A stretch of DNA of 48,088 nucleotides from Chiloscyllium plagiosum. Taxonomy: Eukaryota. The notes under the pieces are model-generated. The model saw nothing but the letters and a program-made list of their open reading frames with translations. It was not told the DNA's origin and did no database searches. Location: positions 9,198,700 through 9,246,787 of the forward strand of contig NC_057718.1 of NCBI RefSeq assembly GCF_004010195.1, read 5' to 3'. Every line of letters starts with the position of its first letter. Positions within the stretch are counted from its first letter, which is position 1. A program made the translations under genes and the position numbers. This document shows positions 1,691 to 47,774 of this stretch, piece by piece.

Positions 1691-3953
1691 ATATCAACAC
1701 CCTCCAATGACAGTCTGTCAGCCATGAGGCAAGAGCAGCAAGATTTTGGTGTTGAGTTGCTGGAGGGAGATCCGAACCAGTAACCTTCTTTCTCAGAAGT
1801 AAGTGTGGGACCCAGAGAAACATTTGATTCAGTGAAATGTCCCTGAAGCTGTCAGATTCTAGAGGACACAATGCGAAAACAACAAGCTTGAAGGTTACCT
1901 TTAGCTTCCATATCTTGGAGCGCATTGTGCCTTAACTCCACTTTGTAATAAAAAGCCTATGTCCCCTTGTAACAATAAATCTGCGTCGTGCAACTTCAAA
2001 AACTACCATTTTCTCTTCCAGTGTGTGCTTCGAGAGAATCGACATTGACCCTCTCAATTCCGACAGATCGGTTTCATAGGACCTGTCCAATCAGACACAG
2101 ACACACAGGCACACACACAGACGCACACACATACGCACACACACACAAAGAGACACACGCACACACTCACGCAGACCATCTCATAGAGCCATAGAGTCAT
2201 AGAGATGTACAGCATGGAAACAGACCCTTCAATCCAACCCATCCATGCCGACCAGATATCCCAACCCAATCTAGTCCCACAAGCCAGCACCCGGCCCATA
2301 TCCCTCCAAACCCTTCCTATTCATATACCCATCCAAATGCCTCTTAAATGTTGCAATTGAACCAGCCTCCACCACTTCCTCTGGCAGCTCATTCCATACA
2401 CGTACCACCCTCTGAGTGAAAATGTTGCCCCTTAGGTCTCTTTTATATCTTTCCCCTCTCACCCTAAACCTTTGTCTTTTAGTTCTGGACTCCCCCATCC
2501 CAGGGAAAAGACTTTGTCTATTTACTCTATCCATGCCCCTCATGATTTTGTAAACCTCTATAAGGTCACCCCTCAGCCTCCGACGTTCCAGGGAAAATAG
2601 CCCCAGCCTGTTCAGCCTCTCCCCATAGCTCAAATCCTCCAACTAGGCAACATCCTTGTAAATCTTTTCTGTACCCTTTCAAGTTTCACAACATCTTTCA
2701 GATAGGAAGGAGACCAGAATTGCACGCAATATTCCAACAGTGGCCTAACCAATGTCCTGTACAGCCGCAACATGACCTCCCAACTCCTGTAATCAATACT
2801 CTGACCAATAGAGGAAAGCATGCTTAATGCCTTCTTCACTATCCTATCTACCTGCGATTCCACTTTCAAGGAACTATGAACCTGCACTCCAAGGTCTCTT
2901 TGTTCAGCAACATCCCTAGGACATTACCACTAAGTGTATAAGCCCTGCTAAGATTTGCTTTCCCAAAATGCAGCACCTCACATTTATCTGAATTAAACTC
3001 CATCTGCCACTTCTCAGCCCATTGGCCCAAACTGATCAAGATCCTGTTGTAATCTGAGGTAACCCTCTTCACTGTCCACTACACCTCCAATTTTGGTGTC
3101 ATCTGCAAACTTACTAACTGTACCTCTTATGCTCCCATCCAAATCATTTATGTAAATGACAAAAAGTAGAGGACCCAGCACTGATCCTTGTGGCACTCCA
3201 CTGGTCACAGGCCTCCACTCTGAAAAACAACCCTCCACCACCACTCTCTGTCTTCTACCTTTGAGACAGTTCTGTATCCAAATGACTAGTTCTCCCTGTA
3301 TTCCATGAGATCTAACCTTGCTAATCAGTCTCCCATGGGAAACCTTGTCGAACGCCTTACTGAAGTCCATATAGATCACTGCTCTGCCTTCATCAATCTT
3401 CTTTGTTACTTCATCAAAAAACTCAATCAAGTTTGTGAGACATGATTTCCCATGCACAAAGCCATGTTGACTATCCCAAATCAGTCCTTGACTTTTCAAA
3501 TACATGTACATCCTGTCCCTCAGGATTCCCTCCAACAACTTGCCCACCACCCACATCAGGCTCACTGGTCTATAGTTCCCTGGCTTGTCCTTACAATCCT
3601 TCTTAAACAGTGGCACCACGTTAACCAACCTCCAGTCTTCCGGCACCTCACCTGTGACTATCGATGATACAAATATCTCAGCAAGAGGCCCAGCAATCAC
3701 TTCTCTAGCTTCCCACAGAGTTCTAAGGTACATCTGATCAGGGCCTGGGGATTTATCCACCTTTATGCGTTTCAAGACATCCAGTACTTCCTTCTCTGTA
3801 ATCTGGACATTTTGCAAGCTGTCACCATCTATTTCCCTGCAGTCTATGTTTTCATACCCTTTTCACAGTAAATACTGATGCTAAATATTTGTTTAGTATC
3901 TCCCCCATTTCCTGCGGCTCCACACAAAGGCCGCCTTGTTAATCTTTGAGGGG

Positions 3954-4180
3954 AGAAAGCGAGGACTGCAGATGCTGGAGATCAGAGCTGAAAATGTGTT
4001 GCTGGAAAAGCGCAGCAGGTCAGGCAGCATCCAAGGAACAGGAGAATCGACGTTTTGGGCATGAGCCCTTCTTCAGGAATCACCATTCCTGAAGAAGGGC
4101 TCATGCCCGAAACGTCGATTCTCCTGCTCCTCGGATGCTCGCTGACCTGCTGCGCTTTTCCAGCAACACATTTTCAGCTC
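3954..4180. mobile_element. Non-coding PLE-terminus hairpin insertion (family A)
   Basis: Inverted arms ~3983-4080 / 4085-4180; 14-bp TSD TAATCTTTGAGGGG (3940-3953, 4181-4194); interrupts CR1 ORF2. Confidence 0.9.
4085..4120 (+). ncRNA. Minimal type I hammerhead ribozyme motif
   Basis: ATTC-CTGAAGA-A-GGGC(TCAT)GCCC-GAAAC-GTC^GATT: core, 4-bp stem II, ACGT palindromic stem III, GUC triplet. Confidence 0.8.
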
Positions 4181-5263
4181 TAATCTTTGAGGGGCCCTAT
4201 TCTCTCCCTAGTTACCCTTTTGTCCTAAATGTATTTGTAAAAAGCCTTTTGGTTCTCCTTAATTCTATTTGCCAAAGCTATCTCATGTCCCCTTTTTGCC
4301 CTCCTGATTTCCCTCTTAAGTATACTCCTACTTCCTTTCTACTCTTCTAAGGATTCACTCGATCTATCCTGTCTATAGCTGACATATGCTTCCTTCTTTT
4401 TCTTAATCAAACCCCCAATTTCTTTAGTCATCCATTATTTTCTGTACCTACCAGCCTTCCCTTTCACCCTAGCAGGAATAAAGTGTCTCTGGATTCTTGT
4501 TATCTCATTTCTGAAGGCTTCCCATTTTCCAGCTGTCCCTTTACCTGCAAACATCTGCACCCAATCAGCTTTTGAAAGTTCTTGCCTAATACCATCAAAA
4601 TTGGCCTGTCTCCAATTTAGAACTTCAACTTTTAGATCTGGTCTATCCTTTTCCATCACTATTTTAAATCTAATAGAATTATGGTCGCTGGCCCCAAAAT
4701 GCTCCCCCACTGACACCTCAGTCACCTGCCCTGCCTTATTTCCCAATAGTAAGTCAAGTTTTGCATCTTCTCTGGTAGGTACATCCACATACTGAATGAG
4801 AAAATGTTCTTGTACACACTTAAGAAATTCCTCTTCATCTAAACCCTTAACACTATGGCAGTCCCTGTCTATGTTTGGAAAGTTAAAATCCCCTACCATA
4901 ACTACCCTATTATTCTTACAGATAGCTGAGATCTCCTTACAAGTTTGTTTCTCAATTTCCCTCTNNNNNNNNNNNNNNNNNNNNNNNNNNNNNNNNNNNN
5001 NCAGTCCTGCCCATCTCTGAGCCATGTTTCTGTAATTGCTATGATATCCCAGTCCCATGTTCCTAACCATGCCCTGAGTTCATCTGCCTTCCCTGTTAGG
5101 CCTCTTGCATTGAAATATATGCAGTTTAATTTATCAGTCCTTCCTTTAGTCCTACCTTGTCCCTGCCTGCCCTGACTGTTTGACTCACTTCTGTTCTCAA
5201 CTGTACCAGTCTCAGATTGATCTCTTTCCTCACTATCTCCCTGGGTCCCACCCACCCACCTTT

Positions 5264-6128
5264 CTAGTTTAAATCCTCCTGAGCAGTTCTCGCAAAGCTC
5301 CCTGCCAGTATGTTAGTCCCCTTCCAGTTTAGATGCAATCCTTCTTTCTTGTACAGGTCACGTCTACCCCAAAGGAGATTGCAATGATCCAAAAATGTGA
5401 ATCCTTCTCCCATACACCAGCTCCTCAGCCATGCATTCATCTGCTCTATCCTCCTACTCCTGCCCTCACTAGCTCGTAACACCGGGAGTAATCCAGATAT
5501 TGCTACTCTCGATGACCACCTTTTTAAATTCCTGCCTAACTCTCTGTAATCTCCCTTCAGAATCTCAACCTTTTCCCTTCCTGCACCTTCTCTGAGACAT
5601 CCTTGATCCTGGCACCAGGGAAACAACACACCATTCTGAATTTTCTCTGCTGGCCACAGAAACGTCTGTCTGTACCTCGGACTAGAGAGTGCCCTAATGC
5701 AATTGATCTCTTGGAACCCGGCGTACCCCTTGTTGCATTAGAGCCAGTCTCAATACCAGAAACTTTTGTGCTATGTTCCCCTGAGAATCCATCACCCCTT
5801 ACATTTTCCAAAACAGCATACCTGTTTGAAATGGGTATATCCACAAAAGGCTCCTGCCCTCGGTGCCGACCTCTCTTACTTACCTGGAGTTAACCCATCT
5901 ATGTGACTGTATCTGAGACTTTCCCCCCTTCCTATAACTGCCATCCATCACACACTGTTGCTGTTGCAAATTCCTCATCGCTTCTATCTGTCTCTCCTAC
6001 CAATCCATTCGATCTGATAAGATTCACAACCAACAGCATTTATGGCAGATATAATCCACAGTAACCCTTAAACTCTCTTTAATCTCCCACATCTGATAAG
6101 AAGCGCAAATCACTCTACTAAAGGCCAT
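5264..6128 (-). pseudogene. CR1 ORF1: Cys-rich N-terminus plus SGNH/GDSL esterase-like domain, disrupted
   Basis: ATG at 6128 reads MAFSRVIC..; motifs ALGHSLVRG, VCCFPGARIKDV, EGLHLNWKG. The GTND block seen in the 11041 copy is missing. Confidence 0.8.
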
Positions 6129-6178
6129 TTTTGATCCTTCACAATCTACAGACCCTTATAAGACCCTCTCTTATACTC

Positions 6179-6312
6179 AAGGCATCTGGATGGATATATG
6201 AATAGGAAGGGTTTGGCAGGTGGGTCTAGATTGGGTTGGGATATCTGGTCGGCATGGACAAGTTGGACCGAAGGGCCTGTTTCCGGGCTGTATGTCTCTG
6301 TAACTCTATGCC
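6179..6312 (+). mobile_element. CR1 3' end fragment
   Basis: Matches the 3' end and tail of the other CR1 copies (GGCATCTGGATGG...CTCTATG). Confidence 0.8.
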
Positions 6313-6857
6313 TCTAAGCTCTCTCTCATATGCTCAAACATACAGTTCCACACACACACACACTGTCTCACAAACTTATACCCCTTTCCACTCACACTCA
6401 CACATATCCACACACTCTTTCACAAACACTCATACCCCCAGCCCTGCATGCATGACACACACACATACACACACATATATAGGTTTGTGGGGTGAATTAT
6501 AACTTGCAGAATTACATTTTATTTTGATAAAAAATTGCATGAATCCATGTAAGATTCTTTAAATGCCTTTTTTAGATTAGAATCAGTCTGAACATTGGGG
6601 CACAGACAGCCTCACACAGGGCACCTCACACCTTCAATGCATTATCTGGGCTGACATGGCACCTATTGTTAACGTTCACTTGAGAACGTAACTTTAAAAA
6701 AGTTTTGCGATTTACTTATGAAAGAACTAAAACCAACATTCTAAAATATGAGAGACTTAACAAACAATCCAAGTCTTTTTCGATATATAATTTCAGTTAC
6801 ACCACACTGTAAACTTTTGCTATAAATTCTGTATCTTACAATCTTACACTCCACAAT

Positions 6858-6893
6858 CACCTGATGAAGGAGCAGCCCTCCAAAAGCGAATGT
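6858..6893 (+). ncRNA. Degenerate hammerhead motif (family B) near the PLE 3' end
   Basis: CAC-CTGATGA-AGGAGCAGCCCTCC-AAAAGC; GAAA is mutated. Confidence 0.55.
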
Positions 6894-7655
6894 TTCCAAA
6901 TAAATCTGTTGGACTATAACCTGGTGTTCTCTGATTTTTAACTTTGTCCACTCCAGTTCAACACTGGCACCTCCAAATCATGTCCTATCAGGGATTATGT
7001 GATCCAGGGTTAACAATTAACCTAAAAGCAAAGAACCAAATGCCAAAATTTGATGAAGGTTTCTTTTTCGGTTAGTTCTGTGGATGGAATCTCTTTACCG
7101 TGACCGAAGCTTTTACAAGTTTGGATAAATACCAGGATTTACTTACAATGTAACGAGTACACACAAGTGCAGGAAGTAACGTATTACGTCAGCAATAAAC
7201 ATAATTTAATGCTTTAGTTGGTTTTAAGAGCACACAGTAACAACCTTCACACAATGTTGCATCTTTTGTTCCTGAATTAGAAAGTCGCAGGTTGAGAAAC
7301 ATGCATAAACTGGGTTTATGAGCTGAATTTAAGCCCCAGTGATGGCTGGGGTGGGATTTGAAACCCCATCTCTGGGTCATTACACTGGTTCCCCAGATTG
7401 CGCATTCAGTGATGTTACCACCAGGCCACTACATCTGCCCCCTGCGAGAATAGGGGCAATTTGTCATGGAGTGAACAATAGATCAGAGCGTGGATTTGGA
7501 ATTATAATGTCCTGGGATGGGGTCAGGCCAAGCAGGAAAGGCCAGTGCAGGCCAGCGAGGAGAGTGAAGATGGGTGTTGTAGTGATTGCTGAACTCAGTG
7601 AAGGTTGCGATTTCCAGTAACCAGTTTGGATGGGATGGGGTGATGAGATTCATGA

Positions 7656-8056
7656 GGTAGCAGTAGCTCAGTGGTCAGCACTGCTGTCTCACAATGCCAG
7701 GAACCTGGTTCTATCCCAACCTCAGGGGACTGTCTGTGTGGAGTTTCTACATTCTCCATGTAATTGTGTGGGTTTCCTCCAGGTGCTCCGGTTTCCTCCT
7801 GCAGTCCAAAGGTGTAGAGATTTAGGTGGATTGGCCATGCTAAATTGCCCATTGTATCCAGGGGCGAGTGGTGTTAGGTGGGTTAGCTGTAGTGTCCAGG
7901 GATGTGCAGTGTAGTTGATTCACTTCAGTAAAAAACCCCATGCAGGGTTCTGGGGATGGATGGGTGAGCAGGTCTGGATGGGATGTCCTTTGGAGGCTTG
8001 GTACAGACTCAATGGGCCAAGTGACCTCTTTCTACACTATAGAGATTCTCTGATTC
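7656..8056 (+). mobile_element. HE1-type SINE, older copy
   Basis: Degenerate A/B boxes, V-domain and CR1-type tail. Confidence 0.85.
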
Positions 8057-8619
8057 ACTTGTGTCTGATTAAGCACAGCCTCAGCGTACAGATTCTAGGA
8101 AAGGTGGGGGTAAACCAAACACTCACAAAAGGGGAATTCAATGATTCAGCATTAGTTTAGAGGCAAAACCAATATTTTGCAAGGAGAAATGGAAAAGACA
8201 GAGGCACTGGTGTAGAGAGGCCCCAATGCCTCCTTCCTCCAACAAATCAAGTGTTCTATAATCGTCAGATACAAGCAATTTCCACAACCGTGCATTAGTA
8301 AGAGCTATTCTTCATCATGCAGGATAGCATACCTCTGGGAGCACACTCTTTTAGAAGGACCCCTCACAATAAAGCAATTTTACAGCACAGAACACAAATT
8401 AATTACAGCAGCTTATTTGATATACTTGTAACAACAAGTTAATTTCCAGCATTTGGCAGAATGTGGAGCTGTGACATTTACACACTGTGGTGTCCAGCAG
8501 TTTGTGACTGATGTGGTGTTATAGCCAGCCCATTCTGACAAACAGTTAGCAAAGTGCCAGAAGAACAGAAAGCAAGACCAGTTAAAGGCTGTCAGAGTGA
8601 AATAGAGAGTAACATTAAA

Positions 8620-8812
8620 GTAAAAGACAGTGGGTCTCGGAAATCTGAGATATCAAATTAAAAGTGCTACAAGCATTCAGCAGGTCTGGCAATATCTGGG
8701 GAAAGGGAAAGAAATTAGATATTGGTTGAATAGTTAAATATTTGAATTAGTAACATTGTTTCTCCTCCACAGACACTGCCTTAGCTGCTGAGTATCTCCA
8801 GCATTGTTTGTT
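8620..8812. repeat. Old fold-back element related to PLE termini
   Basis: CAGCAGGTCTGGCAATATCTGGGGAAAG.. mirrored by ..TTTCTCCTCCACAGACACTGCC..GCTGCTGAG; similar remnants at ~9380-9430/10360-10460 and ~41395-41480. Confidence 0.55.
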
Positions 8813-8959
8813 TATGATACAAGTATATTTTACATGCATCTGTACATGTGAGATACAGCACACTCTGTGGAGTATGTCATGTTAGGACGATGTATGAGAT
8901 CTTTATACTCTCAGGTCATCCCACGATGGTAGAATGTTAAATCAATAAAAATCAGAGAG

Positions 8960-9290
8960 TCTGTGATGACCCATGAAATTATTGTTGAATGTTGGAAAAA
9001 TCCACCTGGTTCACTAATGTCCTTGAAGGAAGGAAACTGCTGTTCTTACCTGGTCTGGCCTACATGTGACTCCAGACCCACAGCAATGTCGTTACTCTTA
9101 ACTGCCCTCCAGGCTATTAGGACTACCCAGCAATGCCCACAATCCTATAAATTAATATTTTTAAAAGTCACATTTTTAAAAAAATTCTTTCATGGGATGC
9201 CATGATTTGAACATCTTACCCAGAATATGAGGCTGGAATTCTGGATTACTAATGCAGTAACATTGCCAGCACACCATCTGTCCTCCCCCC
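8960..9290. mobile_element. Second SINE-like family (fragments)
   Basis: Core CCTGGTCTGGCCTACATGTGACTCCAGACCCACAGCAA recurs in reverse at ~18965-19010 and ~21030-21075. Confidence 0.6.
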
Positions 9291-10036
9291 ACCATGCAAT
9301 GTGTATCTCTTACAGCTGCCTTGCTGTCCTTGAGGCATAGTCCAATTGGTTCCTGCAATTAAGAACCTATACTAAACACCAAGAGCACTGGGCAAACTCA
9401 GCCAGTCTGGCAGTGTCAGGGGAGAGAAATAGAGTCATAGAGATGTACAGCGTGGAAACATACTCTTCAGTCCAACCTATCCATGCCGACCGGATATCCC
9501 AACCTAACCTAGTCCCATTTGCCAGCACTTGGCCCAAATCCCTCCAAACCCTTCCTATTCATATACCCATTCAGATGTCTTTTATATATTATACCAGTTA
9601 TTATACCAGCCTCCACCATTTCCTCTGGCAGCTCATTCCATACACGCACCACCCTCTGTATGAAAACGTTGTGCCTTATGTCCCTTTTAAATCTTTCCCC
9701 ACTCACTTTAAACCTATACCATCTAGTTTTAGACTCCATTATCCTAGGGAAAAGACCTTGGTTATTCACCCTATTCATGCCCTTCATGATTTTATAAACG
9801 TCTCTAACGTCACCTCTCAGCCTCCGACACTCCAGGGAAAGCAACCCCAGTTTATTCAGCCTCTCTCTATAGCTCAAAAAAGTCCAACCCTGGCAACATC
9901 CTTGTAAATCTTTTCTGAATCCTTTCAAGTTTCACAACATCTTTCCTAAATCACGGAACCACAAGTGAATGCAGTAGCCCAAACGTGGTCTAACCAATGT
10001 CATGTACAGCTGGAACATGACCTCCCACTCCTATAT

Positions 10037-10277
10037 GGAGAAAGTGAGGTCTGCAGATGCTGGAGATCAAAGTTGAAACTTTATTGCTGGAACAGCACAG
10101 CAGGTCAGGCAGCATCCAGGGAACAGGAGATTCGACGTTTCGGGCACAGGCCCTTCTTCAGGAATGAGCAGGGCATGCCTGCTCATTCCTGAAGAAGGGC
10201 CTGTGCCCGAAACGTCGAATCTCCTGTTCCCTGGATGCTGCCTGACCTGCTGTGCTGTTCCAGCAATAAAGTTTCAA
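10037..10277. mobile_element. Non-coding PLE-terminus hairpin insertion (family A), very young
   Basis: Perfect 102-bp inverted repeat 10071-10172 / 10178-10279; 15-bp TSD CTCCCACTCCTATAT (10022-10036, 10278-10292). Confidence 0.93.
10185..10220 (+). ncRNA. Minimal hammerhead ribozyme, intact (mirror copy on minus strand at 10130-10165)
   Basis: ATTC-CTGAAGA-A-GGGC(CTGT)GCCC-GAAAC-GTC^GAAT; stem I ATTC/GAAT is fully paired. Confidence 0.85.
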
Positions 10278-10599
10278 CTCCCACTCCTATATTCCACGCA
10301 CTGACCAATAGAGGCAAGCATACCAAACACCTTCTTCAGTATCCTGGCTACCTGCAACTTAACGCATTGAGTCCCATATAACTCCTATCCAGTTCATGTT
10401 AGTTTGACAGCATTCTCTGGGTTTATTTCAGGTGTCCAGCATTCGCAGTAACTGGCCTTTATTCGAGATTGAGACTATATTGTCTGGAGTTTCGAAAAAA
10501 GTGAGGTGATCTTATTGAGATACACAAGAATGTGAAGAGGTGTGTTAACTACATACTGAAAGGCTGCTTTCCCCAGCAAGGGATCTCAGACACAGGCAC

Positions 10600-10845
10600 A
10601 TACACTCAGCGTAAGTCTTGACAGAGCATTATAGATTTCTATACTACCTCCCTCATTTTCTAAACTCCAGTGAGTATAGTTCTAACCAATCCAGTCTCTC
10701 TTCATCCATCAGTCCGTCCATCCCAGGTATCAGTCTGGTAAATCTCTGTTGCACTCCCTCCACTGTCAGAACATCCTTCCTCAGGTAAGGAGACCAAAAC
10801 TGCACACAATATTCCAAAGCCAAGACCCTGTACAATTGAAGCAAG
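10600..10845 (-). mobile_element. Old CR1 RT C-terminal fragment
   Basis: LEYCVQFWSPYLRKD..QRFTRLIPG. Confidence 0.8.
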
Positions 10846-13498
10846 GTCTGTGATTCACAGCAGGCGACAGGAAGCTAGTATGGGGGAGAGGACCAAGTGC
10901 AGAGAATCGCAGAGACTGGAAAAAAATAAACAAACTGTGATCCAAATGAGTGCAAAGTAAATTGAAGCAATACATCAAAAAAGATTGTGGTGGTTACAGG
11001 GAACTGGAGCTGGAGCTGGATGACTTCGGATCATTGAGACATGGAGGGGGTAATTGAGAGGAGTTACAGGGAGGTAGTCTCACCTCAGATACAGGAGAAA
11101 GGTAGATGGGTTACAGTCAGGGGATGGAAAGGGAACAGGCAGACAGTGCAGGGATCCCCTATGACCGTTCCCCTCAATAATCAGTGTACTGTTTTGAATA
11201 CTGTTGGGGGGATGACCTACCAGAGGGAAACCGCAGCGGCCAGGTCTCAGGCACTGAGCTTGGCTCTGTGGCTCAGAAGGGAAGGGGTGGAGATTAGAAA
11301 AGTGCCAGTGGTAGGAGGCTCAGTAATTACAGGAACAGGCAGGAGATTCTGTGGTCATGAACAGGACTCCTGGAAGGTATGCTGCCTCCCGGGTGCCAGG
11401 GTCCAGGATGGCTCTGATCGAATCTACAGGATTCTGAAGGGGGAGGGGGAGGAGCCAGAAGTCATGGTGCACATTGGCACCAATGACATAGCCAGGAAAA
11501 GGGGTGAGGATCGAAAAAGTGATTTCAGTGAGTTAGGTTAGAAGCTAGGTAGGAAGCAGGACGAGCAGAGTAGTAATTTCAGGATTACCGACAGTGCCAT
11601 GTGCTAGTAAGGCGAGGAACAGGGAGCGAGTGCAGCTAAACACATGGCTACAGGGTTGGTGCAGGAGGAAGGGCTTCAGATACATAAATCATTGGGGTAC
11701 CTTCTGGGGAAGGTGGGACCTGTACATGAAGGATGAGTTGCACTTAAACTGGAGGGGCACCAATGTCCTGGGCGGGAGATTTGCTAGGGCACTTCGGGAG
11801 GGTTTAAACTAGGTTGGCAGGGGAATGGGAACCAGAGCTACAGATCAGAGGATAGAGTAGTTGTTGAATGGGCAGAAATAGAATGCAGAGAGTTTGTCAG
11901 CAAGGATACACAATTGGTAGGCCGAAGGGATGTGGTAAAGTATGCCTGTTTCAATGCAAGGAGTGTCAGGAATAAGAGTGATGAACTTAGAGCATGGATC
12001 AGTACTTGGAACTATGATGTTGTGGCCATAACGGAGACATGGATTTCACAGGGGCAGGAATGGTTGCTGGATGTTCCAGGGTTTAGATCTTTTAAAAAGA
12101 ACAGGGAGAGGGGTAAAAGAGGAGGGGGGTAGCATTGTTAATTAGTGAGTGTATCCACAGCTGCAGTAAAGAAGGTTGTTGAGTAGGGTTTGTCTATTGA
12201 GTCAGTGTGGGTGGAAGTCAGGAACAGGAAAAGAGCAGTCACTTTATTGGGTGTTTTCTATAGACCCCCCAACAGCAGCAGAGAGATTGGACAGCAAATC
12301 TTGGAACTGTGCAGATGTGACAGAGTTGTTGTTATGGCTTCAACTTCTCCAATATTGACTGGAACCTCCTTCGTACACATGGTCTGGATGGAGCCGATTT
12401 TGTTAGGTGTGTCCAGGAAGGATTCCTGACTCAACATGTAGATAGGCCGACTAGGGGGAGGCCATATTGGATTTGGTGCTAGGCAACGAGCCAGGCCAGG
12501 TTTCAGATCTCTCGGTGGAAGAGTATTTCAGTGACAGTGATCGCAACAGCCTCACCTTTATCATAGCCATGGAGAGGGATAGGAACAGACAGAATGAGAA
12601 GGTATTTAATTGGGGGAGGAGAAATTATACAGCTATTAGAGAGGAACTGTGGAGTATGAATTAGGGACAATTGTTCTATGGGAAATGTACAACTGAAATG
12701 AGGAGGCTGTTTAAGAAGAACTTCTTGCGAGTGTTTAATACCTTTGTCCCACTGAGACAGGCAAGGAATGGGAAGGTGAAGGAGCTTTGGATGATAAGAG
12801 AAGAGGAGCTTCTCACCAAGAGGAAGAAGGAAACTTACTTAAGGTTCAGGAAGCAAGGATCTGGCAGAGCCTTAGAGGGTTACAGGGTAGGTAGGAAATA
12901 AACTCAAAAATGGATTGAGGAGAATTAGGAAGGAGCATGAAAATGCCGTGGCAGGAAGGATTAGGGAAAACTCAAAGGCGTTCTTCACTTTCGTGAGGAA
13001 TACGAGAACGATCAAAGAGAGGGTAGGGCTGATCAGAGATAGTGAAGGGAATTTGTGCCTGGAGCCTGCAGAGGTACGGGAGGCCTGAAATGAGTTTTTT
13101 GCTTCAGCATTCACTGGAGAAAGGGACCTTGTTGATAGTGAGACCACCGTGGACCAGGTTAATAGGCCTGAACAGATCGATATTAAGGAAGCAGATGTGC
13201 TGGAAATTCTGGGAAGCATTAAGATAGATAAGTCTCCGGGGCCAGAGCAGATATATCCAAGGTCACGATGGGAGGTGAGGAATGAGATTGCTGAGCCTCT
13301 GGCGAAGATCTTTGCCTCCTCGCTCTCCGCGGGAGTAGCACTGGATGATTGGAGGGAGGCAAAAATGTTGTTCCTCTGTCAAGACTGGAATAGGTAAATC
13401 CCTCGGAATTCCAGACCAGTCAGTCTTATGTCTGGGGTAAGTAAGGTACCTGGAGAGAATTCTGAGAAATAGGATTTATGATTATTTGGAAAAGCATT

Positions 13499-14843
13499 AA
13501 ACATAGAACCTAGAAAAATACAGCGCAGTACAGGCCCTTTGGCCCTCGATGTTGCGCCGATCCAAGCCCACCTAACTTACACTAGCCCACTATCCTCCAT
13601 ATGCCTATCCAATGCCCGTTTAAATGCCCATAAAGAGGGAGAGTCCACCACTGCTATTGGCAGGGCATTCCATGAACTCACGACTCGCTGAGTAAAGAAT
13701 CTACCCCTAACATCTGTCCTATACCGACCACCCTTTAATTTAAAGCTTGTAATAGCTGACTCCATACGTGGAAAAAGGTTCTCATGGTCAACCCTATCTA
13801 AACCCTTAATCATCTTGTACACCTTTATCAAGTCACCCCTAAACCTTCTTTTCTCCAATGAAAACAACCCCAAGTGCCTCAGCCTTTCCTCATACGATCT
13901 TCTTACCATACCAACATCCTGGTAAACCTCCTCTGCACCCGTTCCAGTGCCTCCACATCCTTCCTATAGTATGGCGACCAAAACTGCACACAATACTCCA
14001 GATGTGGCCGCACCAGAGTCTTATACAACTGTAACATGACCTCAGGACTCTGCACCACTGATAGTCTGATCACATGTCAGGGTAGCAAGAATGGGGCCAT
14101 TCCCCTGGGTCCTGCTCCCAGAGGGATGAAGCTGCTAATGATAGATTAATTCCTCACACCCACAGCCTCCTTCCCAGGCACTGACCTAGACTGCACATAC
14201 TCCCACAGTTGCCAGCACTGCGACCGTGCACTGGTCTCCCTCCTACAGCACGTGCTCCCGATCATACAGGAGTCCAGGAGATTGACAGCAGCTGCTGCCC
14301 AATATATCAGAATCCCTACAGTATGGAAANNNNNNNNNNNNNNNNNNNNNNNNNNNNNNNNNNNNNNNNNNNNNNNNNNNNNNNNNNNNNNNNNNNNNNN
14401 NNNNNNNNNNNNNNNNNNNNNNNNNNNNNNNNNNNNNNNNNNNNNNNNNNNNNNNNNNNNNNNNNNNNNNNNNNNNNNNNNNNNNNNNNNNNNNNNNNNN
14501 NNNNNNNNNNNNNNNNNNNNNNNNNNNNNNNNNNNNNNNNNNNNNNNNNNNNNNNNNNNNNNNNNNNNNNNNNNNNNNNNNNNNNNNNNNNNNNNNNNNN
14601 NNNNNNNNNNNNNNNNNNNNNNNNNNNNNNNNNNNNNNNNNNNNNNNNNNNNNNNNNNNNNNNNNNNNNNNNNNNNNNNNNNNNNNNNNNNNNNNCTTGC
14701 TTCCCAGAGAATCCTAGGATAAATGCCATCAGGTCCAGGGGACTTATCTATTTTCACCCTTTCCAGAATTTCCAACACCTCTTCCCTACATACCTCAAAG
14801 CCGTCCATTCTAATTAATTGTGACTCAATATTCACATCGGCAA
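13499..14843 (-). mobile_element. CR1 (third subfamily) inserted antisense in the 10990 element; spans the N-gap
   Basis: ATAGAAC tail at ~13500; RRFRGDLI ORF at 13577-13909; KSPGPDGIYPRILWEA at 14696-14843. Continuity across the gap is assumed. Confidence 0.75.
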
Positions 14844-14985
14844 AATAGTCAGCATGGCTTTGTGAGGGGCAGGTCATGCCTCACAAGCCTTATTGAGTTC
14901 TTTGAGGAGGTGACGAGACAAATTGATGAAGGTCAAGCAATGGATGTGGTGTATATGGATTTCAGTAAGGCACTTGATAAGGTTC

Positions 14986-15106
14986 GAGGAGAAAGTGAGG
15001 TCTGCAGATGCTGGAGATCAGAACTGAAAATGTGTTGCTGGAAAAGCTCAGGCAGCATCCAGGGAACAGGAGAATCGATGTTTCGGGCATAAGCCCTTCT
15101 TCAGGA
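14986..15106 (-). mobile_element. Single-arm PLE-terminus insertion (family A) with hammerhead motif
   Basis: 9-bp TSD ATAAGGTTC (14977-14985, 15107-15115); minus strand reads CTGAAGA-A-GGGC(TTAT)GCCC-GAAACATC. Confidence 0.88.
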
Positions 15107-15468
15107 ATAAGGTTCCCCATGGTAGGCTCATTCAGAAAATTAGGAGGCATGGGATACAGGGAAATATGGCGTCTGGATACAGAATTGGATGGCCGAAAGA
15201 ATACAGCAAGTGGTAATGGATGGAAAGTATTTCACCTGAGGTCGGTGACCAGTGGTGTCCACTGGGGTCTGTTCTTGGGCCTCTGCTCTTTGTAGTTTTT
15301 ATAAATGACTTGGATGAAGAAGTGGAAGGGTGGGTTAGTAAGTTTGCCAATGACACAAAGATTGATGGTGTTGTAAATAGTGTTGAGGGATGTTGCAGGC
15401 TACAACAAGACATTGACAGGCTGCAGGGCTGGGCTGAGAAGTGGCAGATGGAGTTCAAACTGGACAAG

Positions 15469-16210
15469 CAAATCTTAGCAGGACTTATACACTTAATGGT
15501 AAGGTCCACAGGAGTGTTGTTGAACAAAGAGACTTTGGAGTGCAAGTTCATAGCTCCGTGAAAGTGGAGTCGCAGGTAGATAGGATAGTGAAGAAGGTGT
15601 TTGGTATGCATTCATTCATTGGTCAGAGTATTGAGTACAGGAGTTGGGAGGTCATGTTGCGGCTGTACAAGACATTGGTTAGGCCATTGTTGGAATATTG
15701 CATGCAATTCTGGTCTCCTTCCTATCGGAAACTTGAAAGGGCTCAGAAAAGATTTACAAGGATGTTGCCTAGTTGGAGGGTTTGAGCTATAGGGAGAGGT
15801 TGAATAGGCTGACGCTGTTTTCCCTGGAGCGTCGGATGCTGAGGGGTGACCTTATAGAGGTTTATAAAATCATGAGGAGCATGGATAGGAGTGAGGGTGA
15901 GAGAGTCCACAACTAGAGGGCATAGGTTTAGGGTGAGAGGGGAAAGATGTAATAGAGACCTAAGTGGTAACTTTTTCACACAGAGGGTGGTACATGTATG
16001 GAATGAGCTGTCAGAGGAAGTGGTGGAGGCTGGTACAATTGCAACATTTAAAAGGCATCTGGATGGGCATATGAATAGGAAGGGTTTGGAGGGGTATGGG
16101 CCAGGTGTGGGCAGGTGGGACCAGATTGGGTTGGAATATCTAGTTGGCATAGACGAGTTGGACTGAAGGGTCTGTTTCCGTGCTGTACATCTCTATGACT
16201 CTATGACTCT
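15469..16210 (+). mobile_element. 5'-truncated CR1 nested in CR1
   Basis: Same subfamily as 2183-6157; ends CTCTATGACTCTATGACTCT; the host RT resumes at 16211. Confidence 0.9.
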
Positions 16211-16764
16211 AAATGTGAAGTGATTCATTTTGGAAGGTCGAACTTGAATACTGAACACAGGGTTAAGGGCAGGATTTTTGGCAGTGTGGAGGAACAGAGG
16301 GATCTTGGGGTCCATGTACATAGATCCCACAAAGTTGCTGCACAAGTTGATAGAGTTGTTAAGAAGGCTATGGTGCTTTGGCTTTCGTTAACAGGGAGAT
16401 TGAGTTTAAGAGCTTTGAGGTTTTGCTGCAGCTCTATAAAACCCTGGTTAGACCACACTTGGAATATTGTTCCCAGTTCTGTCGCCTCATTATAGGAATG
16501 ATGTAGCTGCTTTAGAGAGGGAGCAGAGGAGATTTACCAGGATGCTGTCTGGATTGAAGGGCTTGTCTTATGAAGAGAGGTTGAGTGAGCTTGGACTTTT
16601 CACACTGGAGAGAAGGAAGAGAGGTGACTTGATAGAGGTGTACAAGGTAATGAGAGGCACAGAGAGAGTAGATAGCCAGAGACCTTTCCCCAGGGCAGAA
16701 ATGGCTGTCACGAGGAGTCGTAATTTTAAGATGACTGGAGGACTGTGTAGGGGAGATGTTAGAG

Positions 16765-16857
16765 TCAAAGAGTGGGCGCTGAAAAAGCACAGCCGGTCAG
16801 GCAGCATTCGAGGAGCAGGAGAGTCGATGTTTCGAGCATAAGCTCTTCACCAGGAAT
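16765..16857 (-). mobile_element. Single-arm PLE-terminus insertion with degenerate hammerhead
   Basis: Imperfect TSD GGGGAGATGTTAGAG (16750-16764) / GGGGAAATGTGAGAG (16858-16872); ends CAGGAAT like the other family A copies. Confidence 0.75.
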
Positions 16858-17694
16858 GGGGAAATGTGAGAGGTAGGTTTTTTACGCATGGAATGCACTG
16901 CCAGCAATGATATGAGAGTCAGAGATATTAGGGACATTTGAACGACAGCTGGGCAAGCACATGGGCGGCAGTAAGGTAGGTTGATGTGTAGGTTAGGTTG
17001 ATCTTAGATTAAGATAAATGTTTGGCACAACATCATGGGCCAAAGGGCCTGTTCTGTGCTACGTTCTATGTTCTATTATTAGTAGTTAGTACAATGAAGG
17101 GTATGTAGATTAGACTGATAGGATAAAAGCCGGCACAACACTGAGGGCCAAAGGGCCTGTACTGTGCTGTACTGTTCCATGTTCTGTTATATTACCATCT
17201 CATTCAGACAGATCATCCTCCCTACCCTCAATTCCCTTCCTGACTAAAAACCTGTCTCCCTCAGCTTTGAAGATACTTAATGATACAGCTTATGGTAAAG
17301 AATTCCAGAGATACACAACCACCTGAGGGAAGAAATGTCTCCTCATCTCTGTCTGAAATGGGTAACCTTTCATTATCAGGTTCTGCCCTTCAGTCCTCAA
17401 CTCTCCCATAAAGGGAAACACTCCTTCAACATCTACCCTGCCAAGTGTTCCCCGACATGCTGCACTAGGAACTCCATGTCAAAAGCTGAAAAAGCAACCC
17501 TGGTGCTATCTAGATGCAAGAATGGACACACCACCCATCTTTCTATCACAAGCCTCCCCTCAGTTCGTATCAAGAGTGTTGCAAGCTCAAGTTGTTGTTG
17601 CATTGGTGAGTGTGAACTCTCCAGGACGTTGCGGTTTCTGAAATGGCATTCTGGAGTCCCTGAGATGGCTGGGCTAAGCAGGATCTCTAACAGG

Positions 17695-17890
17695 GCGGAG
17701 GTGGGTACTGCAGATGCTGGAGATTAGAGTCAAGATTAGAGTGGTGTTGGAAAAGCACAGCAGGCCAAGCAGCATCCAAGGAGCTGGAAAGTTCCTGATG
17801 AAGGGCTGTTGCCCGAAATGTCGATTTTCCTTCTCCTTGGATGCTGCCTGACCTGCTGTGCTTTTGCAGCACCACTCTGATCTTGACTCT
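17695..17890. mobile_element. PLE-terminus hairpin insertion (family A variant) with hammerhead motif at 17791-17826 (+)
   Basis: 13-bp TSD GATCTCTAACAGG (17682-17694, 17891-17903); CTGATGA-A-GGGC(TGTT)GCCC-GAAATGTC. Confidence 0.88.
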
Positions 17891-18516
17891 GATCTCTAAC
17901 AGGCTGAGTTCTGAGGCGCATGCAATTGAGCCAAGGAACTCCCGCAGCAAGAGACTTCCAGTCTCGCATTCCCAGATTTACAACGTACACAGCGTCCAGT
18001 ACGTTGGCAAGACAACCAAAAGTCACCTTGACAGAGACGTTCTTTTTCCTTTTTTGTTTTGTAAATTGTTCTGGTACTCCGTGTTGAGGGACTGCGATAA
18101 ATCATGAATGGTTCATAAACATCCCAGCGAAAATCACCTTCGGGCCAGGCCAGGAATGTGTTCCCCTCAGAGCTGAAGAAAGGCAAGGCATGACTTTAAA
18201 CTAGAGTTGGTAACAGAGCCCACCTTGTAAGACCCCTCCACTAGATTGCTTGTGAGCCAATGTCGCTGTCCTCCTGTTTGGGTGAACCAGAGTGGGCTAG
18301 GGGGGAGGGTGAAGGGGATGTGTTTTATGGCCCTCTCCCCTTCTCCGATTGAGAAAACACTGAAGTAGCTTTGTAAACTTTTTGCCAAGTTCTGCTTAAT
18401 TCCTCGATGATCTGACAGAACCCAGAGAGTTTATTTTCTGCGCACAGAACTCTGGGAGACTGATTGAGTTTGTGCTATTGCCCACATAATTAAGTAGACA
18501 CTTCCTTATTCTCTGT

Positions 18517-19689: not shown

Positions 19690-20095
19690 TGGGATTATAG
19701 GTCACCCTTTCACTTGTTATTCAGCTGCTGATAATTTACTCACACTGTCTGACACTCTTCATCGCCTGGAGAGAACTATTATTTGGTCTGTCAACACTCT
19801 ACTCACACCATTTGTATGATCGTTTGATCTCTCTGCTTATTGATCTCTCTGCCTATAAATTCTGTCAAAAAAATCACCCCCGGTGTCATGTGAGTTTTGA
19901 CCTTGTCCAACCCAGTCTAACCCCAGCACCTCCACATTATAAATTCTGTGCCTGTATGCTTCTCTCTCATTTCGCCTGATGAAGGAGCAGCGCTCCGAAA
20001 GCTTGTCATTTCAAATCAACCTGTTGGACTATAACCTGGTGTCTGTGATTTCTGACCTTGTCCAAACCAGTCTAACGTCGGAACCTCCACATCAC
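19690..20095 (+). mobile_element. PLE 3' end (family B) with hammerhead at 19973-20006
   Basis: CTGATGA-A-GGAGC(AGC)GCTCC-GAAAGCTT followed by AACCTGTTGGACTATAACCTGGTG, as in the other family B ends. Confidence 0.8.
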
Positions 20096-21441: not shown

Positions 21442-21727
21442 TGGTAACGTGGTGGCTCAGTGGTTAGCACTGCTACCTCGCAGCGTCAGGGTCCCAGGTT
21501 CAATTCCAGGCATGGGGCAATTGTCTATGTGGAGTTTGCACATCCTGCATGGGTTTCCTCCCACAATCCAAAAATGTACAGGTCAGGTGAATTGGTCATG
21601 CTAAACTTCCCATATGGTTAGGTGCATTAGTCAGAGGGAAATGGGTCTGGGTAGATTACTCTTTGGAGGGTCAGTGTGGACTTGTTGGGCCAAAGAGCCT
21701 GTTTCCACACTGCAGAGAATCTAATCT
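21442..21727 (+). mobile_element. HE1-type SINE
   Basis: A/B boxes, partly deleted V-domain, tail. Confidence 0.88.
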
Positions 21728-22042
21728 TTAAAAAAAAATGGCACTGTCTTATATCATAGAAAGCTTGAGGGTAATGTTCTCTATAATGTGGGTCCAAATT
21801 CCCAATAGCAGGTAGCAAACGTTTTGAATTCAATTTTATTTGAAGTTTCAGGAATAACAAAGCTAATGGTGACCATGAGCTGAATGCCATGTTGTGGCAC
21901 AGTGGTATTGTCCCTACCTCTGGGCCAGGAGATCTGGGTTTATGTCTCACCTGCTCCAGAGGTGTGGCATTACATTTCTGAGCAGGTTATTTAGGAAACT
22001 ATTGACAGGGAGGCTGCAGTTTTGATCTGCTTCCCTAAAGAA

Positions 22043-22445
22043 GGTTAAAAATCACACAACACCAGGCTATAGTCCAACGGGCTTCTTTGGAAGTACTAGC
22101 TTTTGGAGCACTGCTTCTTCATCAGCGAGCTACCTGATGAAGGACCACCCCAGTCCAACACTGGCATCTCCCTCGTCATGGCAACTTAAGCAGGACAAAG
22201 CTCACTGGGAAGGAGTATAATGAAGGCTCACTGGACTGATCCTGGGGATCAATGCATTGATTGACAAAGGGCCAGACATTACCTACCCAAAGCCCGGAAG
22301 AACAAGATTTAATTGAAGTGTTTAAGATACTTAAGATAAAACAGGGTGACTGTGCCAGAATAAAGTTAAAAATCACACAACACCAGGTTATCGTCTACCA
22401 GGTTTATTTGGAAGCACTAGCTTTCAGAGCGCGGCTACCAGATTA
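22043..22445 (-). mobile_element. Two short PLE-terminus (family B) insertions, ~22043-22178 and ~22362-22445
   Basis: GTTAAAAATCACACAACACCAGG..CTAGCTTT.(G)GAGC; degenerate hammerhead cores with a short fold-back (CTACCTGATGAAGGA). Confidence 0.75.
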
Positions 22446-24138: not shown

Positions 24139-26430
24139 TATAGAGTCATAGAGATGTACAGCACAGAAACAGACTCTTCAGTCAAACCCGTCCATGCCAG
24201 ATATCCCAACCCAATCTAGTCCCACTTGCTAGCACCTGGCCCATATCCCTCCAAACCCTTCCTATTCATATATCCATCCAAATGCCTTTTAAATGTTGCA
24301 ATTGAACCAGCCTCCACCACTTCCTCTGGCAGCTCATTCCATACACACACCACCCTCTGAATGAAAGTAATTGCCCCTTAGGTCTCTTTTATATCTTTCC
24401 CCTCTCACCCTAAATCTATGCCCTCTAGTTCAGGACTCCCCCACTCCAGGGAAAAGACTTTGTCTATTTATCCTATCCATGCCCCTCATAATTTTGTAAA
24501 CCTCTATAAGGTCACCCCTCAGCCTCCGACGCTCCAGGGAAAACAGCCCCAGCCTCTTCAGCCTCTCCCTGTAGCTCAAATCCTCCAACCCTGGCAGCAT
24601 CCTTGTAAATCTTTTCTGAACCCTTTCAAGTTTCACAACATCTTTCCGATAGGATGGAGACCAGAATTGCACACAATGTTCCAACAGTGGCCTAACCAAT
24701 GTCCTCTACTGTCGCAACATGACCTCCCAACTCCTGTACTCAATACTCTGGCCAATAAAGGAAAGCATACCAAGCGCCTTCTTCACTATCCTATCTACCT
24801 GAGACTTCACTGTCAAAGAGCTATGAACCTGCACTCCAAGGTCTCTTTGTTCAGCAATACTCCTTGGGACTTTACCATTAAGTCTATAAGTCCTGCTAAG
24901 ATTTGCTTCCCCAAAATGCAGCATCTCACATTTATCTGAATTAAACTCCATCTGCCATTTCTCAGCCCATTGGCCCATCTGGTCCAGATCCTGTTGTAAT
25001 CTGAGGTAACCTTCTTCGCAGTCCACTACACCTCCAATTTTGGTGTCATCTGCAAAATTACTAACTGTACCTCTTATGTCTCACATCCAAATCATTTATG
25101 TAAATGACAAAAATAGAGGACCTAGCACCGATACTTGTGGTACACCACTGGTCACAAGCCTCCAGTCTGAAAACTAACCCTCCACCACTACCCTATCTTC
25201 TACCTTTGAGCCAGTTCTGTATCCAAATGGCTAGTTCTCCCTGTATTCCGTGAGATCTAATCTTGCTAATCAGTCTCCTATGGGGAACCTTGTTGAACGC
25301 CTTACTGAAGTCCATATAGATCACATCTACCGCTCTGCCCTCATCAATCTTCTTTGTTACTTCCTCAAAAAAACCCAATCAAGTTTGTAAGACATGATTT
25401 CCCACGTACAAAGCCATGTTGACTATCCCTAATTAGTCCTTGCCTTTCCAAATACATGTACATCCTGACCCTCAGGATTCCCTCCAACAACGTGCCCTCC
25501 ACCGACGCCAGGTTCACTGGTCTATAGTTCCCTGGCTTGTCCTTATCATCCTTCTTAAACAGTGGTAATATGTTATCCAACCTCCAGTCTTCCAGCACCT
25601 CACCTGTGACTATTGACGATACAAATATCTCAGCAATCACTTCTCTAGCTTCCCACAGAGTTAATGGGTACACCTGATCAGGTCCTGGGGATTTATCCAC
25701 CTTTACCCTTTTCAAGATATCCAGCACTTCCTCCTCTGTAATATGGACATTTTGTAAGATGTCACCATCTATTTCCCTACAGTTTACATCTTCCATATCC
25801 TTTTCCGCAGTAAATACTGATGCAAGATACTCATTTAGTTTCTCCCCCATTTTCTGCAGCTCCTCACAAAGACCCCCTTGCTGACCTTTGAAGGGCCGTA
25901 TTCTCTACCTAATTACCCTTTTGTCTTTAATGTATTGGTAAAAACTCTTTGGATTCTCCTTAATTCTATTTGCCAAAACTATCTCATGTCCCCTTTTTGT
26001 CCTCCTGATTTCCCTCTTAAGTATACTCATACTGTCTTTATACTCTTCTAAGGATTCACTCGATTGATCCTGTCTATACCTGACATATGCTTCTTTCTTT
26101 TTCTTAACCAAACCCCCAATTTCTTTAGTCATCCAGCATTCCCTATACCTACCAGCCTTTCCTTTCACCCTGACAGGAATATACTTTCTAATAGAATTAT
26201 GGTCGCTGGCCCCAAAGTGCTCCCCCACTGACACCTCAGTCACCTGCCCTGCCTTATTTCCCAAGAGTAGGTCAAGTTTTGCACCTTCTCTAGTAGGTAC
26301 ATCCACATACTGAATCAGAAAATTGTCTTGTGAGCACTTAACAAATTCCTCTCCATTTAAACCGTTCACACTATAGCAGTCCTAGTCTATGTTTGGAAAG
26401 TTAAAATCCCCTACCATAACCACCCTATTG
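24139..26430 (-). mobile_element. CR1 LINE, 5'-truncated with internal deletion (APE end plus RT)
   Basis: GDFN, SDHN, KSPGPD, QHGF, DFSKAFN and RRLRGDLI motifs; tail at ~24140; highly similar to 2183-4910. Confidence 0.93.
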
Positions 26431-28545: not shown

Positions 28546-28617
28546 CTCCCCAGCAGGGAACTGAACACCAGTCTCCCATGTGACAGGAAGGGATACTAAC
28601 CACTATACTACCGAGGA
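28546..28617 (-). tRNA. tRNA-Asp(GTC) pseudogene
   Basis: Minus strand TCCTCGGTAGTATAGTGGTTAGTATCCCTTCCTGTCACATGGGAGACTGGTGTTCAGTTCCCTGCTGGGGAG aligns without gaps to the vertebrate tRNA-Asp(GTC) (72 nt). Anticodon stem and T-arm are disrupted. No CCA; a T5 run lies about 10 nt downstream. Confidence 0.88.
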
Positions 28618-30165: not shown

Positions 30166-30460
30166 AGGTGGCACAGTTGCTCAGTGGTTAGCACTACCGT
30201 CTCACAGCAACAGGGTCCTAGGTTCAATTCCAGCCTTGGGTGACTGTCTGTGTGGAGTTTGCACATTCTCCCTGTGCCTGTGTGGGGATGCTCCGGTTTC
30301 CTCCCACAGTCCAAAGATGTGCAGGTCAGGTGAATTGACCATGGGAACTTGCCCATAGTGTTAGGTGCATTAGTTAGAGGGAAATGGGTCTGAGTGGGTT
30401 ACTCTTCAGAGGCTTGGTTGGGCCGAAGGGCCTGTTTCCACGCTGTAGGGAGTCTAATTT
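30166..30460 (+). mobile_element. HE1-type SINE
   Basis: A/B boxes, V-domain, tail. Confidence 0.9.
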
Positions 30461-39512: not shown

Positions 39513-39654
39513 CAACACGTGTCAGCACAGTCTTGGTGGGCCAAATGGCCTTTTCCTGTGCAAATGGTCTTTGTTCTTTGGTGCAGGATTGGGAAAGAGA
39601 CATTCCAGCATCACTACGTTTTCCTTGAATTGACCTGACTGACTGATAATAGCT

Positions 39655-47770: not shown

Positions 47771-47774
47771 ATCT

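Follow-up and report, generated by a model that had tools for sequence, protein, structure and literature searches.

A Neptune-type PLE most probably produced the family A insertions, which would be its shortest integration products, each comprising a pLTR end and tail without the element body. Within the window (the whole stretch of DNA analysed, 48,088 bases) we located six of them, 89–241 bp each and without an ORF, which together make up 969 bases (2.0%). Priming would have taken place from both target strands and at two internal RNA sites, with copying from both sites running to a common stop at hammerhead helix I, and the palindromes would represent dead-end products with no replicating unit. 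The tail signature, the head-to-head arms, the 9–16 bp TSDs and, in a related shark, an apparent family-A-like hammerhead after the RT-endonuclease of a Neptune-type element all favour very short PLE integration products, which was the first of two alternatives offered by the original prediction. Solo and opposite-strand minimal hammerheads have already been read as truncated PLEs (PMC4209133).

The density of about one insertion per 8 kb agrees with that prediction, and the five insertions it named all lie where it had put them, with TSDs (14, 15, 9, 15 with two mismatches, and 13 bp) within the 9–15 bp that it gave. The sixth, at 39655, had been considered a remnant and proved to be a complete, TSD-flanked insertion, and all six carry TSDs of 9–16 bp. 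When 295 random position pairs were scored as a control, the three best TSD scores were never reached, that of 39655 was reached twice, and the two weakest four times. Empty paralogous CR1 sites were identified within the window for four of the six insertions (3954, 10037, 14986 and 16765), while no insert-free paralog was found there for 17695 or 39655. A more diverged relative of family A lies at about 41375–41470. An exact 20-nt family A pattern had no matches in viral contigs, and all 17 of its metagenome matches were dismissed as chance, their alignments spanning 20–26 nt only.

Four of the six copies are two-armed and head-to-head, with unequal arms in every case, and two are single-armed, which means that the predicted fold-back structure was recovered for three of the five named copies and not for 14986 and 16765. 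The first insertion has an exact 14-bp TSD (3940–3953 / 4181–4194, + strand; empty CR1 paralog at 25802–25971), a tail-bearing arm (pLTR end and tail) on the minus strand (3954–4080) whose core has A for G12, a 4-nt spacer (4081–4084), and a tail-less arm on the plus strand (4085–4180) that contains an intact minimal hammerhead with its core at 4089 and whose 3′ end shares 5/6 nt of microhomology with the target. The second is flanked by an exact 15-bp TSD (10022–10036 / 10278–10292, + strand; empty paralogs at 2713–2860 and 24660–24812), and its tail-bearing (10037–10175, − strand, core at 10161) and tail-less (10176–10277, + strand, core at 10189) arms both carry intact hammerheads, are identical over 102 nt and meet in a near-perfect palindrome. 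The single arms are a tail-bearing one at 14986–15108 (− strand, with an 8-nt deletion; exact 9-bp TSD, 14977–14985 / 15107–15115) and a tail-less one at 16765–16857 (− strand, with a damaged core and A-U replacing G-C in stem II; 15-bp TSD with two mismatches, 16750–16764 / 16858–16872). The fifth insertion (exact 13-bp TSD, 17682–17694 / 17891–17903) combines a minus-strand tail-bearing arm (17695 to ~17794), which ends close to the predicted cut site of the ribozyme, with a plus-strand tail-less arm (~17792 to 17890, core at 17795). The sixth (39643–39763, + strand; 16-bp TSD with two mismatches, 39643–39658 / 39748–39763) consists of a tail-end stub of ~11–14 nt on the minus strand followed by a decayed tail-less arm with its core at 39670, the two being joined through three common bases.

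The arms fall into two classes of 3′ end. The outer end is fixed within 1–2 nt across many loci, and in the sequence runs loose ends occurred at 14986–14988 in 4/4 runs with unrelated flanks (agreement 0.33–0.49). All five tail-less arms end 31–36 nt inside this outer end, a spacing that matches the 30–40 bp tail of PLEs and thus supports the PLE reading (PMC8557442; PMC3846280; PMC11167929). Four of the five tail-less ends match the target at 5/6 nt (20,000 random draws put P at about 5e-5, with alignment registers picked after inspection of the data). These inner ends with microhomology run contrary to our preferred explanation to the extent that initiation in the anole element proceeds without homology. 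The centres differ in all four two-armed window copies, further junction types are present in public contigs, and at least three sequence variants of family A exist.

At the other end, six of the eight core-bearing arms start 0–4 nt before the core, none of the window copies reaches beyond about 11 nt upstream of it, and the 5′ ends of all six insertions cluster in a 12-nt interval (probability about 3e-5 under a uniform distribution along the arm). Ordinary random 5′ truncation does not account for this clustering, a point against our preferred explanation. The ends lie off the cut site in 8/8 core-bearing arms. A fixed copying length was rejected, given that arms from both start sites stop at the same RNA position, and a pile-up of loose ends at 15108 was discounted as proof of the 5′ boundary, since it is there that the reference passes out of the element. 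An initiator-like motif overlaps the family A boundary and is not common to the second family described below; a promoter might account for the boundary. That nearly all copies start just before the ribozyme is the one detail that the PLE reading does not account for.

A minimal-hammerhead descriptor gave eight matches in the window, of which six belong to family A and two to a second family; 200 shuffles averaged 0.035 matches, and none gave more than one. By its sequence, the motif conforms to the minimal hammerhead of PLEs. The features considered (core boxes, an extra base after A9, G10.1-C11.1, a palindromic 15.2-16.2 and a short helix I) are complete at 4089, 10161 and 10189, and at 17795 there is a G-U at 15.2-16.2; the other four arms are damaged. 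The expectation of a core on one or both strands was borne out in part: both strands are unbroken at 10037 only, the left arm of 3954 has A for G12, the left arm of 17695 lacks a core, and 16765 has G for A6. Stem II is paired in 28/28 cells, both partners of one pair being changed in 2/7 rows (probably one event), and the score was reached by 23 of 500 shuffles, making covariation within family A weak. Helices I, II and III differ in sequence between family A and the second family and yet pair in both. The hammerhead's orientation is fixed relative to the tail and is sense in the terminal repeat. Rfam returned no hammerhead match in the window at E up to 10; its mir-589 match at 10128–10222 (38.5 bits against a gathering threshold of 54.8) is merely the 10037 hairpin. 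Folding of three single arms and one second-family end gave z values between −0.37 and 0.80, within the ordinary range of stability. Within the PLE reading, which we consider probable as a whole, the hammerhead would be a mostly decaying passenger with predicted self-cleavage.

The enzyme that mobilised family A may plausibly belong to the lineage of a 5′-truncated, Neptune-type PLE reverse transcriptase fragment (47784–48088, + strand) that runs off the window end and that no family A arm adjoins within the window. This fragment, for which a Pfam search of seven frames returned no family, is 87% identical to the protein P0003 and 76% identical to P0013 (Stegostoma RT-GIY-YIG). The same Pfam search found RVT_1 in a CR1 frame. 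The defining feature of Neptune-type elements (PMC8557442) is present in P0003, P0010, P0026 and P0027, and its last C is changed in P0013. The final 15 residues of P0013, a gene model from another shark genus, are 7–11 base changes of 45 from the family A arms as compared with 14–17 from the second family; among 107,681 windows none comes closer than this C-terminus (the runner-up needs 12 changes). In a related shark, a family-A-like hammerhead thus appears to follow the RT-endonuclease of a Neptune-type element, an indirect link. That P0013 is the only one of 227 proteins compared to contain the translated motif counts against our preferred explanation. Protein searches with the translated arm gave three candidates, none of which scored, those with the P0003 endonuclease and its 3′ read-through gave eight proteins, none reading into an arm, and a search of representative proteins found distant PLE proteins, none with the translated motif.

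The second PLE family is represented at 42130–43855 (− strand) by a hammerhead-bearing end joined to a GIY-YIG remnant (weak Pfam match, below cut-off, at 42987–43289). It shows short forms like those of family A, and three of its eight arms continue into the element body. Its hammerhead helix I has 3 bp with starts at −3 to 0, compared with 4 bp and a start at −4 in family A.

The short copies could alternatively derive from a dedicated short non-autonomous RNA (about 125–135 nt, from helix I) that solo arms would produce and that a PLE enzyme would mobilise in trans, as with SINEs, the fold-backs being formed at integration. All six window copies are short with a common 5′ boundary, at least three variants exist, non-autonomous PLE derivatives have been described (PMC8557442; bioRxiv 10.64898/2026.07.22.740005), and raw RNA reads cover the arm about 9–15x as deeply as the CR1 flank. 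However, read-through of introns and UTRs can account for this coverage, the 10037 arm runs about 7 nt further upstream than the boundary and the loose-end consensus there starts with the same letters in three runs, which implies that longer templates exist, and three of eight second-family arms continue into the body. Internal initiation on a full-length RNA starting in the pLTR would, moreover, give the same product with no separate gene, and we regard the short RNA as unlikely. As a point against our preferred explanation, the raw RNA run contained no pile-up of RNA starts, which its poly(A) single-cell library was hardly able to show. Of the cut-site-to-cut-site joints expected of retrozyme RNA, for which this library was ill-suited, there was none among the rows shown. 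Improbable by comparison is a single priming event in which the first cDNA snaps back and copies itself into a hairpin, and in which the second arm ends where it anneals to the overhang on the far side of the target. Self-priming has been proposed for rotifer PLE palindromes (PMC3846280), the arms of one copy are always of one variant (3/3 long fold-backs), which speaks for our preferred explanation too, and the palindrome at 10037 fits such self-priming and our preferred explanation equally well. Yet 16765 consists of one tail-less arm only, has the same kind of microhomology at its end and must have been primed at the inner site, and at 17695 and 39655 the second arm exceeds the first in length and is not contained in it.

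The second alternative of the original prediction, an independently replicating fold-back element, either a MITE-like DNA element or a retrozyme moving through circular RNA, is largely refuted and seems to us very improbable. The original prediction had itself named unique junctions in every copy as an argument against such a family, and the centres of all four two-armed copies do differ. MITEs have matching terminal inverted repeats, a fixed TSD length and uniform copies, and this identity was rejected on the unequal arms, the variable TSDs, the differing centres and the two single-armed copies. High density, inverted arms, the lack of an ORF and a few, rare head-to-tail (‘goes back’) joints in public contigs speak for such an element, but none of the six window copies forms tandem units, more junction types appear in the contigs, the ends are off the cut site, and the hammerhead is minimal rather than canonical.

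Returning to PLE integration, we tentatively raise the possibility that the short copies are not truncations and are instead complete run-off products, i.e. integrated ‘strong-stop’ DNA. Reverse transcription would start only about 95–130 nt from the RNA 5′ end, making the stub the default monomer product, and full-length copies would need a jump or a tandem template. If this is true, the 5′ boundary is where the template begins, at the outer edge of helix I of the hammerhead, its occurrence in two unrelated families points to a role of the ribozyme fold besides cutting, the fold-backs record twin priming in which only one of the two primers has target homology, and shark genomes constitute a very large natural dataset for testing. 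As a repeat family, family A is ordinary, and its value is as mechanistic evidence on how PLEs form inverted copies and tails, and on what the PLE hammerhead does. The short stubs expose all four junctions of one event together, and their frequency makes statistics feasible on the two start sites, on twin priming versus snap-back and on the template RNA start. For annotation, Rfam misses 2% of the window and gives the 10037 hairpin a sub-threshold score as a microRNA precursor.

Family A belongs to a described kind of sequence, namely PLE termini that carry minimal hammerheads and come with tails and inverted copies. The EN+ PLE unit comprises a pLTR, an adjacent inverted 5′-truncated copy, an optional 30–40 bp tail and a TSD (PMC3846280; PMC8557442), and family A shares its head-to-head arms, a tail on one arm only (31–36 nt), palindromic centres, solo pLTRs and a similar TSD length (8–10 bp in rotifer PLEs versus 9–16 bp here; PMC3846280; PMC8557442); it differs in lacking a body, in its 89–241 bp size and 2% share of the window, and in its clustered 5′ ends. 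As far as the main-text parts and two supplementary files of the minimal-hammerhead survey go, described PLE motifs likewise have a short helix I, an extra base before stem II, G10.1-C11.1, a palindromic 15.2-16.2 and no helix III loop, and are mostly single, with some opposite-strand pairs 100–700 bp apart, whereas stem II has 4 bp in family A and 7–8 bp in the Schistosoma families. In those same parts we found no shark and no mapping of ends or TSDs, which are mapped here. In vitro, the RT of the Poseidon element of Anolis carolinensis (PAc) starts at two internal sites, and these define the tail; both target strands are cut and extended, uncut RNA is the main template, and initiation is non-homologous (PMC11167929). 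The shark RT, in contrast, is Neptune-type, the inner end here has target microhomology, and no ORF start could be shown in the family A arm. Non-LTR animal retrozymes, reported in one chondrichthyan, are non-coding, carry a type I hammerhead and are derived from or related to PLE pLTRs; they form head-to-tail tandem repeats that are processed between ribozymes into circular RNA (PMC7229834; bioRxiv 10.64898/2026.07.22.740005), whereas family A consists of dispersed single or inverted arms.

The six insertions are real and were correctly recognized by the original prediction: the five that it named and the piece at 39655 are all present, and the direct repeats (TSDs) of 9–15 bp that it assigned to the five were recovered, measuring 14 bp at 3954, 15 at 10037, 9 at 14986, 15 (with two mismatches) at 16765 and 13 at 17695. 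The piece at 39655, previously taken for a remnant, is a whole insertion with a TSD of 16 bp (two mismatches), and those at 14986 and 16765, previously read as fold-backs, each consist of a single arm, probably one copy of the end of a Penelope-like element (PLE) terminal repeat (pLTR). In a control of 295 random pairs under the same search, the scores of the three best TSDs were reached in no case, that of 39655 in two and that of the two weakest insertions in four. Together these insertions (family A) total 969 bases, or 2.0% of the window. An empty CR1 paralog was present in the window for four of the six, its alignment spanning one long gap, and skip joints in public data represent further CR1 copies without the 14986 insert; no insert-free paralog of 17695 or 39655 was found within the window.

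The window is dense in LINE pieces (RVT_1 match; repeat families), which we take to be of CR1 type. Four insertions (3940-4194, 10022-10292, 14977-15115 and 16750-16872) lie inside CR1 remnants and are therefore younger than those CR1 copies; this proportion may merely mirror the CR1 share of the window. Also abundant is a SINE-like family (464-642, 7962-8050, 21554-21727, 30297-30470, 33872-34045, 37062-37136 and 45170-45343), presumably resembling the elasmobranch HE1 type, and a tRNA-like stretch at 28546-28617 on the minus strand (Rfam 22.8 bits, below the gathering score of 29) is possibly a SINE head or pseudogene. Assembly gaps at 4965-5001 and 14330-14695 touch no family A insertion.

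In ribozyme sense, all family A arms are pieces of one module of ~130 nt, which runs from the 5′ strand of helix I through the core, stem II and the cut site to a further ~65 nt and a terminal segment. The arms show two kinds of 3′ end, outer and inner. The outer end is fixed: in public data on 14945-15155, loose ends pile up at 14986-14988 in all four runs (432 and 169 reads in the raw-read run; 334 and 577, 798, and 56, 174 and 62 contigs in the contig runs), counts among the rows listed that are lower bounds, with 714 further rows beyond these. Past the outer end the sequences are unrelated (agreement 0.33–0.49), and overlap with the target, judged by eye, is 0–2 bases. The inner end lies 31–36 nt inside the outer end in all five tail-less arms, and four of them show microhomology with the target, the onward sequence of the module agreeing with the opening six bases of the TSD at five positions (P ~5e-5 from 20,000 random draws; eight registers, picked after the ends were seen). 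Two-armed copies always combine one outer and one inner end, facing outwards. Their centres differ in all four (a 4-nt spacer in 3954; a near-perfect palindrome in 10037; a 3-base overlap in 17695, whose first arm ends close to the predicted cut site; and a 3-base overlap following an 11–14 nt stub in 39655), which is the sign that the original prediction had itself named against an independently replicating family. Within each of the three long fold-backs the arms are of the same variant, with 5 differences over 96 positions in 3954 and none over 102 in 10037. A diverged arm at 41375-41470, ~80% identical across 37 nt and carrying a hammerhead-like core that is broken, represents an older or related family. 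Among 24 runs listed (four organisms, ten studies; ten rows possibly from the window DNA's own source), 20 contained the family A arm at 0.89–1.00 of nine sampled words.

The 5′ ends are clustered. Six of the eight core-bearing arms start 0–4 nt before the core and both arms of 10037 ~11 nt before it, with the cut site spanned by all eight; for the six insertions to fall within one 12-nt window has a chance of ~3e-5 if ends are uniform over the arm. The same boundary appears in at least seven contig joints with inserted letters (7 of the 12 rows listed, with 101 beyond), which depart from 15107 or 15108 to differing partner positions with 1–6 letters between, and three of the 15 joints among those listed switch strand, linking 15017-15022 with 15103-15108. 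The accumulation of loose ends at 15108 alone is no proof of a boundary, because the element ends at that point in the reference; in three runs the consensus of these loose ends opens with the same three letters and, in the raw reads, it matches the 10037 extension over six letters, and longer copies therefore exist. In a second PLE end family, three of eight aligned arms continue upstream, three start 0–3 nt before the core and two start further in. Helix I is 3 bp long in this family and up to 4 bp in family A, which together with the arm starts indicates that short copies in both families begin at its outer edge. No pile-up of RNA molecule starts was found in the raw run, a poly(A) single-cell library ill suited to revealing one.

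A minimal-hammerhead descriptor returned eight sites in the window, six in family A and two in the second family, against a mean of 0.035 and a maximum of 1 in 200 shuffles, and an Rfam search of the window gave no hammerhead match. The predicted family A ribozyme bears the marks given for PLE minimal hammerheads in the available text of PMC4209133, namely an extra base before stem II, G10.1-C11.1, a palindromic 15.2-16.2 and a short helix I. Among the named copies 10037 alone has it intact on both strands. Damage affects four of the eight cores in family A, in several cases at CpG sites. All 28 stem II cells are paired, and in two of seven rows a G-C pair is replaced in both bases by A-U (probably a single event); the covariation score was reached in 23 of 500 shuffles, no strong signal for sequences related to one another. 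Between the two families the helix III pair is flipped, both strands of helix I are changed, and stem II has another sequence yet still pairs.

The second family, with its own minimal hammerhead, occupies 6320-6945, 19975-20059, 22041-22180, 22355-22436, 38101-38286, 42130-43855 and 47355-47517. Both long and short copies occur, as do two fold-backs, and at 22134 the sequence of the second arm passes from the core directly into the tail. A decayed GIY-YIG region is attached to the copy at 42130-43855, and within the window only this family is joined to such a remnant. A third PLE-like endonuclease fragment (38810-39625), so labelled from its translation with no fitting Pfam match, lies beside an inverted, 5′-truncated copy of itself (arms 38847-38966 and 39227-39346) and ends just left of the insertion at 39655.

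The Neptune-type PLE reverse transcriptase (RT) fragment at 47775 continues past the end of the window, and no arm adjoins its 5′ junction; where that junction meets a CR1 3′ end there is a short tandem duplication (47757-47790). Over 47784-48065 the fragment shares 96% identity with a protein assigned by its source to Chiloscyllium punctatum, which bears out the shark origin given in the original prediction. Relatives of this RT carry a CX4CXXC-type motif ahead of a C-terminal GIY-YIG, which characterizes Neptune and Nematis elements according to the available part of PMC8557442. One relative, P0013 (named Stegostoma tigrinum; 76% identity to the window RT), has an endonuclease followed by a proline- and serine-rich stretch and 15 terminal residues, and these residues lie 7–11 base changes of 45 from family A arms and 14–17 from the second family; against the 3954 arm they need 8 changes, the lowest value among 107,681 peptide windows, the runner-up needing 12. 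This ending, from one of 227 proteins and a gene model read as protein alone, therefore points to a hammerhead resembling that of family A, in sense orientation and downstream of the RT in this lineage. Further protein searches, with the translated arm and with the endonuclease plus 3′ read-through of the related shark protein P0003, gave no added arm link.

Five observations bear on integration: the TSDs, the two 3′ end classes, the inner-end microhomology, the clustered 5′ ends and the unique centres. In the anole, according to the available text of PMC11167929, the PLE protein cleaves the two strands of the target and extends each, two internal RNA sites start reverse transcription and bound the tail, and the template is uncut RNA. 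For family A, a staggered target cut would leave two 3′ overhangs, with priming at the outer site from one and at the inner site from its partner. Both cDNAs would extend to the same end point at helix I and be joined head-to-head, or a single cDNA would be resolved alone. Such two-site priming accounts for all six insertions, the lone tail-less arm included. Snap-back self-priming of one cDNA, proposed as a source of fold-backs in the accessible part of PMC3846280, does not account for all six: it leaves unexplained both the insertion made of a lone tail-less arm and the two in which the second arm exceeds the first in length. The template for two-site priming is probably full-length element RNA beginning in its pLTR, and a start site inside the pLTR is described for Drosophila Penelope (PMC8557442, in part); a separate short RNA is an unlikely template.

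The structure of family A is one already described for PLEs. Dimeric PLE hammerheads were reportedly treated by Lunse et al. in 2017. Retrozymes, the alternative identity raised by the original prediction, are tandem arrays in the available portions of PMC7229834 and bioRxiv 10.64898/2026.07.22.740005, the latter finding them in one chondrichthyan; family A in the window shows no tandem arrangement, and a retrozyme identity is very unlikely. Literature searches, with most subscription papers outside their coverage, found nothing on this shark family, which the retrozyme tables of that preprint may include, or on a concentration of 5′ ends at helix I, on which the genomic-ends figure of the anole paper may bear. 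Solo minimal hammerheads, and opposite-strand pairs 100–700 bp apart, have been read as truncated PLEs (PMC4209133, in part), and a pLTR with an inverted copy, a tail on one arm and a TSD is a typical PLE unit as set out in the available text of PMC3846280 and PMC8557442. Relative to these descriptions, the helix I boundary and the microhomology on one side only are modest additions.
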